This document shows, one piece after another, positions 58,211-64,000 of a DNA stretch of 64,000 nt. Origin of the DNA: a virus. Numbering within the stretch: position 1 is the stretch's first letter; every line of letters starts with the position of its first letter. The stretch spans positions 1 to 64,000 of IMG/VR virus record IMGVR_UViG_3300028388_003025, one strand, 5' to 3'. The notes under the pieces are model-generated. The model searched no databases and was not told where the DNA came from. It saw nothing but the letters and a program-made list of their open reading frames with translations. The position numbers and the translations under genes are program-made.

Positions 58211-58813
58211 ATGAGTAATTTTGATATAAAAGAGATACAAGACAAACTTGATCTAGACTTTAAAAGTTTTGATAAAGGCAATGCCCCACAAGATGTTTTG
58301 TTTAACTATAAAGGTGAAAGCACAGAGAATAAGATAGAACTTTTCAAGCTTCTATTAACTCATGGCGCTGTCTTAAACAGCTCAATGCTTTCAAATCTTT
58401 GGTTTTTAATTAGATCTGGAGCAGACTTGTCAGATGATTTCTTTAAGTTAGATGCCGTATGGTTCAATGATCTTGAAGAATTTCTTGATATAAAAATAGA
58501 ATTGAAAAAAGAAATAGATATATTCACAAGAGAACTTGTTAAGTATTACCTTGCAGTTATGGCCTCTGCTTCATATGAAATGGAAGGCTCTGACGAAGGA
58601 GCCGAAGGAATTCCTTATACATTCCAAAGAGTATTGCTAAGCACTGACTTATTTTCTTTATCAAATTTAGTATACAAGGTTGATTTAAATACAAAAGATT
58701 TACCAATAGTTTCAGGCTCTGTAAAAATATTGAGTGCACTTGTTGGTAAAGCTAAATTTATAATGAGCTTTGCTGAAGATGTATTAAACAAATCTGTAGA
58801 GGTAGATAGGTAA
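58211..58813 (+). CDS. Hypothetical protein
   Basis: GGAGG RBS; TAATG coupling to next gene. Confidence 0.75.
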   Translation: MSNFDIKEIQDKLDLDFKSFDKGNAPQDVLFNYKGESTENKIELFKLLLTHGAVLNSSMLSNLWFLIRSGADLSDDFFKLDAVWFNDLEEFLDIKIELKKEIDIFTRELVKYYLAVMASASYEMEGSDEGAEGIPYTFQRVLLSTDLFSLSNLVYKVDLNTKDLPIVSGSVKILSALVGKAKFIMSFAEDVLNKSVEVDR

Positions 58814-59406
58814 TGGCGCCAACTATATCATATCAAGCAGTAATAGATGCAGTCTTGGCAGACATAGAAGCTAAGTGTTCTAATGTTGGAACAGACACTG
58901 TTCCTGCAGCTGCTAAAAGCGCTGTATATTATTCTGAGTCCGGAACCTATGATCTTGGTGGAGCTTTTGAATTAGGCGCGGGGATCAATTCTGTCCCTAC
59001 AATTTTAAACCTAGTTGCCGCAGCTACTGTTCAAACACAGCTTGATGCGTTTTTATTACTACATGGCATGGACAGTGCTAGTGGCAAGATGACATCCAAG
59101 TTCTTTTTTAGACTAATAAGTTTATTGGCATGCTTTTATTCTGCAAGAGTAGTACATGCAACATATGCTGCAGGTCAAAGTCTTGTTATATATAACTCAG
59201 GCGCTGTAACTTATAATACTCCAGTTGTCACTGATGATCAGAACCTTGTAACAATTACAGATATAAACGATTTAATAACAAACTTTAAAGATAATTATTC
59301 TAATGTTGACAACATTGCAAACCTAGGCTATTACACTTCTGCTACTAGCAGCAGTTCTAGCAGTTCTTCGTCGAACTTTATTGCCTATTTTAATTTAAAT
59401 GGATAA
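58813..59406 (+). CDS. Poly-Ser-tail protein A (Ser9, ends NFIAYFNLNG)
   Basis: Translation; paralog of 59420..60115. Confidence 0.85.
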   Translation: MAPTISYQAVIDAVLADIEAKCSNVGTDTVPAAAKSAVYYSESGTYDLGGAFELGAGINSVPTILNLVAAATVQTQLDAFLLLHGMDSASGKMTSKFFFRLISLLACFYSARVVHATYAAGQSLVIYNSGAVTYNTPVVTDDQNLVTITDINDLITNFKDNYSNVDNIANLGYYTSATSSSSSSSSSNFIAYFNLNG

Positions 59407-59419
59407 GGAGTATATATAA

Positions 59420-61029: not shown

Positions 61030-62594
61030 AATTAAATAAAGACGAAGAGTCTGTAATTAATTGCTACCAAATGTATCATGACGCTATAACAACAATACTA
61101 AGGCCAGACGGAGAAGTTATATCTATAGAAGAAGAGAGGCTTGTAAGAACTAGACATGCTTTAAGAGATGTGGCCAACCCTAACAAACCCTTTTTAGACT
61201 CTGAGATACTATGTAAAAGAGTCTTCCACAATGATAATGATGGCTATTTAAAAGAAGTATATGCTAACGAGTATGATCACCATATAGCTCATGCATATGG
61301 AGCATTAACACAAAGCGGTATGTGGGATCAGGCTGCAATATTGGTTGTAGATGGTTGGGGTAAGGACATCAACACAGAAGAGTTTAATAGTATAGCAATA
61401 TTCTCTGCAAATAATGGTGAGATAGAAACAAAAAGAGTCTATGATATAGCTTATTCTATAGGCGTCATGTATTCATACTCAAGCGAAATGGTATTCAAGC
61501 ATGAGTTTACAGAAGGAAAGTTTATGGGACTGGCCACGCATGGCGATGCAAAGTCTGTGCCAAGGCTTTATACTATTGACGAAAGTACTGGAGATATATC
61601 TTATTACAGTGAGGCATACCCAATAAAAGAAGAACACAAAGTCCACAACAATGGCTGGAATACTCACTTATTGAACTGGATCTATAATGAGGTATATCCT
61701 CTTTGCAATAGCGATGCAGATTTCGCAGCAACAATCCAAAAAGAATTTGAGCTAATTATGTTTGAACTTGTTAAGTATATTAAGAATACTGTAGGTGGTG
61801 ACCGCTTAATAATAAGTGGAGGCTGTGGTCTTAACTGTACGTTTAATGGCAAGTTGCTGGCAGCTAATATATTTAAAGATGTCTACATCCCACCTATGTG
61901 TACAGATCAAGGAAGTTCTATAGGTGTTTTATCTGCATATAAAAAGCAGAATATAAACAAGACACTTAAATATAATACTATAATCCATCCATTGCCGGAT
62001 GATATTAAAGAAGTAGATATGGAGTGGGTGGCTAACATGCTCAAGTCTGGCAAGATAGTTGCATGGTTTGAAGGTGGCTCTGAATATGGGCCAAGAGCAT
62101 TATGCCATAGAAGCTTGCTTGCTGTCCCTAACAAGAAAGATGTAGCAGACAAGGTTAACAGAATAAAAAACAGGGAGTTGTGGAGGCCGTTAGCTCCCGT
62201 AGTTCTTGATACAGAGTTTGAAAAGATGTTTGATTGTAAGCCTGGCGTGCTACACGAATTCATGCTTTCAACAGAGACTGTCAGTGAAGATTATAGAGAA
62301 AAGGTGCCGGCAGTTCTTGCTAAAGACAATACTACAAGGCCACAAATACTCTTTAATGATTTAGACAATTCTGTATTGTATTCTATTATGAAGTCATTTG
62401 ACTTGCCTGTGTTACTTAACACATCCTTTAATGACAGAGGAGAGGCAATATGTGAGTCTCCAGGGGATGCTATAAGGTTTGTAAACAAAAGAGATAAAGA
62501 AGATGTGGTGCTTATATTCTGTGACGGTAATAAGATTTATAACTATGCTAGAATGTCTAAACCACTATTCAATGGAGATACTGATGGCAAGTAG
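61017..62594 (+). CDS. Carbamoyltransferase, NodU/CmcH (TobZ-like) family
   Basis: HD..., EEER, HHIAHA, VDGWG, EGKFMGLA, SGGCGLN, EYGPRAL.HRS, IKNRE.WRP.AP, LNTSFN. Confidence 0.93.
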   Translation: MLRVELNKDEESVINCYQMYHDAITTILRPDGEVISIEEERLVRTRHALRDVANPNKPFLDSEILCKRVFHNDNDGYLKEVYANEYDHHIAHAYGALTQSGMWDQAAILVVDGWGKDINTEEFNSIAIFSANNGEIETKRVYDIAYSIGVMYSYSSEMVFKHEFTEGKFMGLATHGDAKSVPRLYTIDESTGDISYYSEAYPIKEEHKVHNNGWNTHLLNWIYNEVYPLCNSDADFAATIQKEFELIMFELVKYIKNTVGGDRLIISGGCGLNCTFNGKLLAANIFKDVYIPPMCTDQGSSIGVLSAYKKQNINKTLKYNTIIHPLPDDIKEVDMEWVANMLKSGKIVAWFEGGSEYGPRALCHRSLLAVPNKKDVADKVNRIKNRELWRPLAPVVLDTEFEKMFDCKPGVLHEFMLSTETVSEDYREKVPAVLAKDNTTRPQILFNDLDNSVLYSIMKSFDLPVLLNTSFNDRGEAICESPGDAIRFVNKRDKEDVVLIFCDGNKIYNYARMSKPLFNGDTDGK

Positions 62595-63540
62595 CGAAGA
62601 TAAAAGTTGTAGACCTTTAGGTATTCAAGTATGGAATGATTGCTCAAATAATTGTAGCTTCTGTGTACAGAAGCACTTTATAAAAGAAGTAACGCCACTT
62701 CACAAGAAGAAGCGATCAATAGGCCTAGCAATGTCTCAGGTTCTAAACAACGATATAATAAAAGAATATCAAGGAGTCATGCTTATAGGTGGCGAGATAT
62801 TTGGAGGCCAATTAAAAGGCCTTTATTCTGACTGGTTTGATCTGCTTGAGGCCTTCAATACTGCAGGATTAAAGCATGTAATACTACAAACAGGCCTCAT
62901 GTATGAAGATGTTTCAGATCTTATCGAGTCCTTGGCCATAGTTAAAGATATAGAACAGGTAGTTATATCGACTTCATATGATACGCTAGGCAGATTCTCC
63001 AAGAAAACTAAAGACATTTGGGACAAGAATTTGTTGCTACTAGAGAAGCTAAAGAAGAAGTATAAGTTTCAGATCAATGTTTCTGTAATAATGACCCAAG
63101 CATTCATTGATGAGTATCTAGCTGGGAACTTTGTACACCCTAAAGGGGCTGACAGAGTTAGCTTATGCATCCCTCATATGTTTTCTGACCACCGTGATGC
63201 TCTTGATAATCCAGATCAATACTCGGACAAACTAAGAGATAGTGAATGTGAATACTCTGACAGGTTTTTGCCATTAAGGGATATTGATAAGCTTGCAGAG
63301 TTTGCTCACAAGTTCTCTGCCCAGTATGGATATGGAGGACTTGGCAGCTTTATAGAGTCAGCACAAGATATAATTCCATCATTTACACAAGACAATGATG
63401 TAGAACCTACCGACTTCATGCCTCGTAGTAGATGTGGGCACCTATTGATAGCACAATGTTATTCTGACAGCAACGAGTGCCTTGCTTGTGATCTTGAAAA
63501 ACTAATACCAAATATAAAGGAGTTGGCAAAGAATGGATAA
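62584..63540 (+). CDS. Radical SAM enzyme 2 (paralog of enzyme 1)
   Basis: CSNNCSFC, LIGGE, TSYDTLGRF, CGH...CLAC; probable start ATG 62584. Confidence 0.88.
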   Translation: MASSEDKSCRPLGIQVWNDCSNNCSFCVQKHFIKEVTPLHKKKRSIGLAMSQVLNNDIIKEYQGVMLIGGEIFGGQLKGLYSDWFDLLEAFNTAGLKHVILQTGLMYEDVSDLIESLAIVKDIEQVVISTSYDTLGRFSKKTKDIWDKNLLLLEKLKKKYKFQINVSVIMTQAFIDEYLAGNFVHPKGADRVSLCIPHMFSDHRDALDNPDQYSDKLRDSECEYSDRFLPLRDIDKLAEFAHKFSAQYGYGGLGSFIESAQDIIPSFTQDNDVEPTDFMPRSRCGHLLIAQCYSDSNECLACDLEKLIPNIKELAKNG

Positions 63541-64000
63541 GTCTTATTGCGCACACCTAGATTCAAACTCTATGTTTGTTCGCTTCAAGGAGAATAGTTC
63601 TGACTTAATCTTTAGCTGTTGTAGTAACAGGGCTACAGATAACTTTGGCGATAAAGAATGTACTATCTCTTGTGATAACAGATCTGAAAATATAGATATG
63701 AAAAACGTATTAGGCATAGGTGCATACGGCAAATGTAATATACAGTGCAGGTATTGCAACTCTTCTCAGGTAGAGGTTAGTAGCGACTATTATGATATAC
63801 TTGAAAAGAATATATTAGAGCGACTAGACCTTTCAAAAGTAGAGAAAATGTTCTGCGGTAGTGGAGAGCTTTTCTGTGACGAAGGTTTGCAGTCCTTATA
63901 CAAGAAGATATTAGCAATAAATCCAAACATTAAGGTTGTTATAGAAACAAATGGCATAGCATGGGACGAGAGTATTTTAGATAATATAGGTATGACAAGC
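63533..64000 (+). CDS. Radical SAM enzyme 3 (partial, runs off window end)
   Basis: Manual translation MDKSYCAH...SCC...C..SC...CNIQCRYC...GSGE...IETNG; AAGGAG RBS; not in ORF track. Confidence 0.85.
   Translation, partial: MDKSYCAHLDSNSMFVRFKENSSDLIFSCCSNRATDNFGDKECTISCDNRSENIDMKNVLGIGAYGKCNIQCRYCNSSQVEVSSDYYDILEKNILERLDLSKVEKMFCGSGELFCDEGLQSLYKKILAINPNIKVVIETNGIAWDESILDNIGMTS

Follow-up and report, generated by a model that had tools for sequence, protein, structure and literature searches.

A conserved phage cassette of serine-tailed proteins and radical-SAM enzymes that probably remodels a phage protein chemically

The window analysed here covers bases 1–64,000 of the 79,120-base IMG/VR record IMGVR_UViG_3300028388_003025 (CheckV completeness estimate 72%), and its 3′ end carries a gene cassette in which two proteins ending in serine tracts are followed by radical S-adenosylmethionine (radical-SAM) enzymes. 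Examination of the remainder of the record revealed that the cassette extends past the window end, to base 70,594. In total, it comprises a helper gene, two serine-tailed paralogs (pSerA and pSerB), eight radical-SAM genes (RS1–RS8), a carbamoyltransferase gene and two fucosyltransferase-like glycosyltransferase genes. The same gene set recurs in about 30 other large phages and corresponds to no described pathway, and it therefore probably serves to remodel a phage protein by chemistry that has not been described before. The genes of the cassette are as follows, with record positions given from RS3 onwards:

58211–58813, + strand: helper, 200 amino acids (aa), first gene of the module
58813–59406, + strand: pSerA, 197 aa, serine-tailed protein
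59420–60115, + strand: pSerB, 231 aa, serine-tailed protein, paralog of pSerA
60112–61029, + strand: RS1, radical-SAM enzyme of the cassette subfamily
61017–62594, + strand: carbamoyltransferase of the NodU/CmcH/TobZ type
62503–63540, + strand: RS2, radical-SAM enzyme of the cassette subfamily
63533–64336 (record; the window stops at 64000), + strand: RS3, radical-SAM enzyme of another type
64351–65094 (record): RS4, radical-SAM enzyme of another type
65066–66025 (record): RS5, radical-SAM enzyme of the cassette subfamily
66026–66940 (record): RS6, radical-SAM enzyme of the cassette subfamily
66944–67768 (record): glycosyltransferase-like paralog 1, 274 aa
67761–68627 (record): glycosyltransferase-like paralog 2, 288 aa
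68627–69688 (record): RS7, radical-SAM enzyme of the cassette subfamily
69698–70594 (record): RS8, radical-SAM enzyme of the cassette subfamily

A preliminary description of this DNA had reported two poly-serine paralogs with Ser9 and Ser34 tracts and a shared C-terminus, and both are present at these positions on the + strand. The tight operon coupling that it described was likewise confirmed: gene junctions abut or overlap (TAATG, ATGA), and the helper overlaps the pSerA start by 1 nt. It had counted three or more radical-SAM enzymes; the three in the window stand, and the count widens to eight, with two glycosyltransferase-like genes in addition. Its placement of the cassette right after a tail fibre had to be abandoned, since a 67-aa open reading frame (ORF) and the helper gene separate the upstream 1264-aa gene from pSerA. 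The 1264-aa protein had no Pfam or PHROG match, and its label as a tail fibre reflects position only.

The pSerA protein consists of a folded N-domain of ~175 aa, a Ser9 tract (59347–59373) and a terminal N-F-I-A-Y-F-N-L-N-G (59374–59403), and pSerB ends in Ser34 (59978–60079) followed by C-L-F-V-A-Y-F-N-L-N-G (60080–60112). The two proteins are paralogs that align along their entire length (28% identity, E 9e-07) and have the C-terminus F-I/V-A-Y-F-N-L-N-G in common. Cysteine is absent from the pSerA tract and occurs once in pSerB, just past the serine run. The serine codons of the tracts are a mixture of TCN and AGY, and Tandem Repeats Finder detected only a weak 33-nt period. This codon mixture indicates that selection on the tract acts at the protein level, and on account of it a slipped microsatellite was rejected as the origin of the tract. 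In the AlphaFold2 model of pSerA (mean predicted local distance difference test, pLDDT, of 79) the N-domain adopts an alpha/beta fold, and residues 175–192, spanning the tract and the start of the tail, have a pLDDT below 50. The N-domain of the pSer proteins had no match in Pfam or PHROG, and Foldseek comparisons of its fold with PDB and BFVD turned up nothing at an E-value of 0.001 or below (best VIA Z 4.5).

An exhaustive profile search with the N-domains of pSerA and pSerB recovered a family of 168 clusters at 50% identity, of which 30 reached E 1e-10 or better. In most members the C-terminus consists of a Ser/Cys tract and a hydrophobic tail. Across 105 unique tract-bearing members the tract has a median length of 21 residues (range 9–35) and is composed of 84.4% Ser and 14.9% Cys, all other residues making up less than 1%; only three of these members, pSerA among them, have a Cys-free tract. 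A pure poly-Ser tract was also seen in the related contig L005. The tract is followed by x-F-I-A-Y-M-x-I/L, and the protein terminates 7–11 residues past the tract. The rest of the family consists of members lacking both tract and tail, which in related loci typically lie directly 3′ of a tract-bearing member; alignment of these tract-less members yielded no conserved stretch usable for a locus search. Family alignments also display an N-domain motif, K-S-x-C-x-N-I, with an invariant Asn (N24 in pSerA) and a near-invariant Cys (C22) two residues earlier. In two members, P0266 (408 aa) and P0276 (574 aa), the N-domain is fused to Gly_rich_2 (PF21722) in place of the Ser/Cys tract. Other search routes were unproductive: a k-mer protein search with pSerA returned only pSerA itself, searches for related loci with pSerA alone, with poly-Ser patterns or with the tract-less member P0150 gave no loci, and among INPHARED phages the cassette had no megablast match and pSerB no tblastn match.

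We assessed the linkage of the tailed proteins and the enzymes from two directions. An enzyme-centred set, collected via RS8 orthologs, contained 22 IMG/VR contigs (38–314 kb, from at least 10 metagenomes) and 6 contigs from metagenome-assembled genome (MAG) bins. A tract-bearing protein was located within 10 kb of the RS8 ortholog in 21/22 IMG/VR and 6/6 MAG-binned loci, and the helper lay within the same distance in the same 21 IMG/VR loci and in 5/6 MAG loci; the sole IMG/VR locus without tailed protein and helper is on a contig cut 1 kb upstream. Combined, the tailed protein accompanies an RS8 ortholog in 27/28 loci, and the helper does so in at least 26. All eight IMG/VR loci of a tail-motif-centred set hold a helper homolog, one or two pairs of family genes and four to seven subfamily enzymes, and the seven contigs found in this way all lie within the 22 found via RS8. 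Typically the helper comes first, followed by the tailed protein, the second paralog, an RS8-type enzyme and further enzymes. Since tailed protein, helper and radical-SAM subfamily co-occur in both search directions, this layout is not a chance neighbourhood, and the arrangement of substrate plus tailoring enzymes proposed in the preliminary description is supported (27/28 enzyme-centred and 8/8 tail-centred loci).

A cellular origin of the six MAG-bin loci was considered and rejected: all of them carry the module, and three are single contigs of 245–284 kb, like related jumbo-phage contigs. The contigs L033, L034 and L036, from MAG bins labelled “uncultured bacterium” or Bacilli, are probably jumbo-phage genomes binned as bacteria. 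The virus of the window itself is probably a smaller, non-jumbo phage, distinguished by two tract-bearing copies, nearly Cys-free tracts and the additional glycosyltransferase and carbamoyltransferase genes.

The helper is a mostly helical protein whose homologs (E 1e-9 to 6e-22) are positioned immediately 5′ of the tailed protein in related loci, with about one helper per pair of tailed-family genes. It had no Pfam or PHROG match and no PDB profile match, and no relation was found between it and the N-domain of the tailed proteins. An Atlas lead to DUF7829 (0.90, 140 shared features) was too weak and was not used. The helper would most likely act as an adaptor or chaperone for each pair of tailed-family genes.

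Conservation of this kind bears on whether the enzymes act on the tailed proteins at all. The pSer proteins might be ordinary tail proteins with a flexible serine linker, the enzymes serving DNA or metabolite modification or a similar purpose; in favour of this, contact between enzyme and tract is presumptive. We consider such independence highly improbable, as the linkage persists across divergent phages (27/28 and 8/8 loci), the order is kept within a late operon and the cassette contains no nucleotide-metabolism genes.

Six of the eight radical-SAM enzymes (RS1, RS2, RS5, RS6, RS7 and RS8) constitute one subfamily, in which CX3CX2C and GGE are invariant and a C-terminal C-G-H...C-x2-C is common to all; RS4 carries a variant cluster motif, CX4CX2C. 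The Pfam radical SAM model (PF04055) matched above the cut-off only in RS3 and RS4, with the other enzymes below it (RS1 sub-threshold at E 0.0012); the CX3CX2C and GGE motifs, together with a radical-SAM barrel in the RS8 model, place the subfamily within the superfamily. As the conserved core of RS2 begins near 62614, its start is probably downstream of 62503. None of the enzymes of the window record had a Pfam SPASM match, and the C-terminal motif of the subfamily predicts one auxiliary metal site only, not a full SPASM domain. A true SPASM domain occurs in one radical-SAM gene of a relative (L010:6488–7387; L010 is IMGVR_UViG_3300012979_000030), and several other radical-SAM genes of such relatives have no Pfam match.

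A maximum-likelihood tree of 33 subfamily sequences resolved three clades with 100/100 support, each containing one of RS6, RS7 and RS8 together with members from all the phage lineages sampled. A fourth clade has no member from the window phage, and RS1, RS2 and RS5 form a long-branch group; RS1 is a fast-evolving paralog of the cassette subfamily. The separate, fully supported clades spanning all lineages indicate that the paralogs are old and not interchangeable, and the RS6, RS7 and RS8 orthogroups are the ancient, conserved core. The most conserved orthogroup is that of RS6, with up to 62% identity between phages. Each orthogroup retains CX3CX2C and C-x-H...C-x2-C, with one extra Cys in RS6 or RS8. 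RS8 has an additional invariant Cys182, which has no counterpart in the paralogs. We conclude that the cassette enzymes make up a radical-SAM subfamily that is new, branches deeply and has a minimal auxiliary site. Among metagenomic proteins, P0004–P0008 (606–609 aa) are fusions of two complete subfamily domains, each half with its own CX3CX2C and CGH, and such natural fusions suggest that the paralogs work together. Some relatives have at least 10 radical-SAM genes around the tailed protein (L010:12–9285, L010:11160–16620 and L005:252–9545).

The RS8 profile had no sequence match in PDB, and the enzyme was compared with known structures through a predicted model with a pLDDT of 92.6. The best match was anSMEcpe, an anaerobic sulfatase-maturating enzyme (anSME), with Z 16.3, a root-mean-square deviation of 3.4 Å and 257–264 aligned residues spanning positions 6–298. 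Further structural matches of RS8 were as follows:

CteB, Z 15.3
ChlB, Z 15.1
SkfB, Z 15.1
SuiB, Z 14.9
viperin, Z 14.2
DesII, Z 13.7
MoaA, Z 13.6
EpeE, Z 11.7 (Foldseek E 4e-5)

Judging by this model, RS8 most closely resembles peptide-modifying radical-SAM enzymes, in agreement with the kind of enzyme that the preliminary description had anticipated. Prediction of an RS8–pSerA complex gave a score of 0.25 against a mark of 0.32, which amounts to no verdict and was not used either way.

Linkage of the genes, their conserved arrangement and the fold class to which the enzymes belong together lead us to favour, by a modest degree, the reading that the cassette is a conserved phage module for the enzymatic modification of a protein tail, with the Ser/Cys tract as the enzymes' target. 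Under this reading, the substrate would be the two pSer proteins, each presenting, at its C-terminal end, a disordered Ser(/Cys) tract with a conserved hydrophobic heptapeptide as its cap. The RS6, RS7 and RS8 orthogroups would provide the core enzymes, to which the window phage adds RS1, RS2, RS5, RS3 and RS4, and the radical-SAM enzymes would engage the tract and remove hydrogen atoms from residues within it. A released modified peptide, the other product envisaged in the preliminary description, is less likely because the cassette contains no protease or exporter. The pSer proteins are probably tail-associated: the Gly_rich_2 fusions, and the F5/8-type-C, Peptidase_G2 and BppL_N proteins that neighbour the module in other phages, fit such a role, short of proof.

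The composition of the tract restricts the chemistry that the enzymes could perform. Cys is the only tolerated substitute for Ser, suggesting a chemistry that treats –OH and –SH alike. At the same time, the window phage keeps its core enzymes although its tracts are nearly Cys-free, which means that Cys cannot be required for the core reaction; a Cys-dependent core role, such as a metal-cluster scaffold or an obligatory thioether, was rejected on account of the Cys-free tracts of pSerA and two other members. It is known that anSMEs turn both Ser and Cys into formylglycine, gripping the substrate mainly via its backbone (PMC7771511). This dual specificity, along with the retention of core enzymes beside nearly Cys-free tracts, favours an anSME-like reaction in which Ser and Cys are oxidised at C-beta to formylglycine, which we put forward as a guess and a rather doubtful one.

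Epimerases of the PoyD or YydG/EpeE kind could instead turn L-Ser into D-Ser at many positions, which would make the tail resistant to proteases or beta-helical. Such a C-alpha reaction on the backbone is independent of the side chain and would fit Cys-free tracts, EpeE is among the structural matches of RS8 (Foldseek E 4e-5; Z 11.7), and the invariant Cys182 of RS8 could be a hydrogen-atom donor. However, the same indifference to the side chain leaves the Ser/Cys-only tolerance unexplained, Cys182 is specific to RS8 and missing from its paralogs, and EpeE scores considerably lower than anSME and the sactisynthases (Z 11.7 versus 16.3), so that we regard epimerisation as unlikely.

A rigid rod could also be produced by ether, thioether or C–C crosslinks within the tract or to another protein, in the style of sactisynthases or rotapeptide synthases. 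CteB, SkfB and SuiB are near-top structural matches (Z 14.9–15.3), the equivalence of Ser and Cys would suit O/S donors, and the auxiliary site, with three Cys and an open position, resembles that of CteB (PMC7771511). Against crosslinking stand the pure poly-Ser tracts of pSerA in the window and of L005, and no defined ring pattern is discernible in the models. In addition, we know of no radical-SAM ether crosslink formed from Ser, and crosslinking therefore appears decidedly improbable.

Accessory genes of the cassette introduce a different class of chemistry. The NodU/CmcH-type carbamoyltransferase recognised in the preliminary description was verified by strong matches, with Carbam_trans_C (E 7e-44) and Carbam_trans_N (E 4e-26) both above cut-offs and phrog_1601 (E 4e-84) covering positions 10–520 of 528. 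In NodU/CmcH/TobZ enzymes, Carbam_trans_N is a Kae1-like domain and Carbam_trans_C a YrdC-like one. The two glycosyltransferase-like paralogs had no Pfam, NCBIfam or PHROG match, and their Atlas neighbours (0.95–0.97) carry NodZ, FUT8_N_cat or O-FucT on 10–19% of their members, with a structural TM of 0.69–0.86. Their R-G-T-D-Y and T-E-D motifs resemble those of GT23/GT65-like fucosyltransferases. As a lead only, we consider them to be glycosyltransferases of the fucosyltransferase superfamily.

These accessory genes are restricted in distribution. Across the 23 viral contigs (the window record and the 22 IMG/VR contigs, with the six MAG loci outside the count), the carbamoyltransferase was present in 3, its orthologs being found only in L009/L013 and L012, which marks it as accessory and not core. 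Of the co-occurrence across phages that the preliminary description had set out as a check, the radical-SAM part consequently stands and the carbamoyltransferase part does not. Homologs of either glycosyltransferase were found in 0 of the 22 other viral contigs, again with MAG loci outside the count, and no Pfam glycosyltransferase match was obtained for those cassette proteins of L006 and L010 that were tested.

Conceivably, the radical-SAM enzymes make or tailor a sugar, nucleotide or lipid, which is then linked to the hydroxyl groups of Ser or put to use elsewhere; the tract would be a glycosylation-type acceptor or a mere linker. DesII, viperin and MoaA match RS8 at Z 13.6–14.2, and the two NodZ/FUT8/O-FucT-like enzymes and the NodU-type carbamoyltransferase all have sugar-acting relatives. 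Nevertheless, the 22 viral contigs without homologs of either glycosyltransferase keep the tailed protein and the enzymes, and the best matches of RS8 are peptide-modifying enzymes; on these grounds a non-protein moiety seems to us an unlikely product. If instead the tract is the target of the radical-SAM enzymes, the fucosyltransferase-like enzymes and the carbamoyltransferase would probably further decorate hydroxyl groups in the window phage, adding a further layer that is possibly a carbamoylated O-glycan.

Several points weigh against modification of the tract on the tail of the phage particle. We infer the tract modification from genes and models, and we infer the virion location from gene position and the Gly_rich_2-fused relatives only, with an N-domain that has no known fold. 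No reason is evident why a homopolymer would call for three or more distinct enzymes. The nucleotide and sugar enzymes viperin, DesII and MoaA score only ~2 Z units below the best match of RS8. The known relatives of the carbamoyltransferase and of the NodZ/FUT8-like enzymes act on sugars, leaving O-carbamoyl-serine as just one option. With respect to anSMEs, the cassette enzymes have one C-x-H...C-x2-C (three Cys and a His) in contrast to the two 4-Cys [4Fe-4S] clusters of SPASM, and the tract, at ~99% Ser and Cys, does not contain the (C/S)x(P/A)xR substrate motif. Since both the SPASM clusters and the substrate motif are missing, the cassette enzymes fall outside the anSME family.

Carried further, the reading of the tract as the presumptive substrate leads to a tentative picture, which we hold to be possible and somewhat short of probable: in large phages of anaerobic habitats, the tip of a tail appendage may be a rewritten polymer (poly-formylglycine, alternating D/L-serine or a crosslinked rod) built by a complex of at least three radical-SAM enzymes, and in the window phage this tip may be further glycosylated and carbamoylated. 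If true, this would be the first case of a virus-particle protein hypermodified by radical-SAM enzymes, and the protein chemistry itself might be new. The post-translational chemistry of phage particles is barely known, and radical-SAM maturation has so far been described in small secreted peptides and at single active-site residues, not in a folded viral protein with a homopolymeric tail. A gene set that occupies 5–12 kb and persists in many lineages must confer a benefit, the likely returns being host recognition, adhesion and protease resistance in gut and rumen. The subfamily could also yield new Ser/Cys reactions for protein engineering, for example aldehyde tags.

The cassette sits among the tail genes of the phage. 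Upstream lie two identified structural genes:

27588–28670, + strand: major head protein gene
51411–52571, + strand: baseplate wedge gene

An unusually long ORF of 3098 aa (34914–44210) separates the head genes from the baseplate wedge gene and occupies, by position, the slot expected for a tape measure. On its 3′ side, the cassette is followed by small ORFs and by genes for an M15-type peptidase, a CBM5/12 protein, a protein of 992 aa and a Laminin_G_3 protein. The M15-type peptidase match, at record positions 71717–72181, is weak, and the CBM5/12 protein at 73834–74229 also belongs to the region directly after the cassette. The homolog of the 992-aa protein in L017 carries a BppL_N baseplate domain.

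The preliminary description knew of no characterised phage system of this kind, and our full-text literature searches retrieved no description of one. Four kinds of known system come closest. Serine-rich repeat glycoproteins resemble the tailed proteins in that their Ser-rich tracts are sites of dense O-glycosylation, and the two NodZ/FUT8-like enzymes and the NodU-like carbamoyltransferase of the window cassette recall sugar tailoring of the NodZ/NodU type. Unlike in those systems, it is radical-SAM enzymes that accompany the tract universally, and the sugar enzymes are missing from the other viral cassettes tested. The epimerases PoyD and YydG/EpeE (PDB 8ai1–8ai6) similarly modify many residues of one substrate whose precursor has a large non-core part, but EpeE is lower-ranked among the matches (Z 11.7), the cassette core enzymes have no B12 domain and the tract is a homopolymer.

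The enzymes anSMEcpe/AtsB (PDB 4k36–4k39), whose substrates are sulfatases of the Cys/Ser type, share with the cassette the action of a radical-SAM enzyme on a protein; they include the best match of RS8, and anSMEs accept both Ser and Cys. Apart from the differences in clusters and substrate motif given above, the cassette would involve dozens of target residues instead of one, and three to thirteen paralogs in place of a single enzyme. Finally, the SPASM/twitch maturases of ribosomally synthesised and post-translationally modified peptides (RiPPs), namely CteB, SkfB, SuiB and ChlB with Cys/Ser-rich precursors such as SCIFF, are similar in that the substrate gene adjoins the maturase genes, that the target region is of low complexity and that these enzymes are near-top structural matches of RS8. 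As in radical-SAM RiPP systems, the candidate precursor gene is also co-inherited with the adjoining enzyme genes (27/28 and 8/8 loci). Families of PqqD-like RiPP recognition elements, proteases and transporters were not detected in the cassette, although such elements can escape these searches. In contrast to radical-SAM RiPP systems, the “leader” of the tailed proteins is a folded domain of ~175 aa, the conserved element is C-terminal, and the setting of the cassette is a phage tail module.

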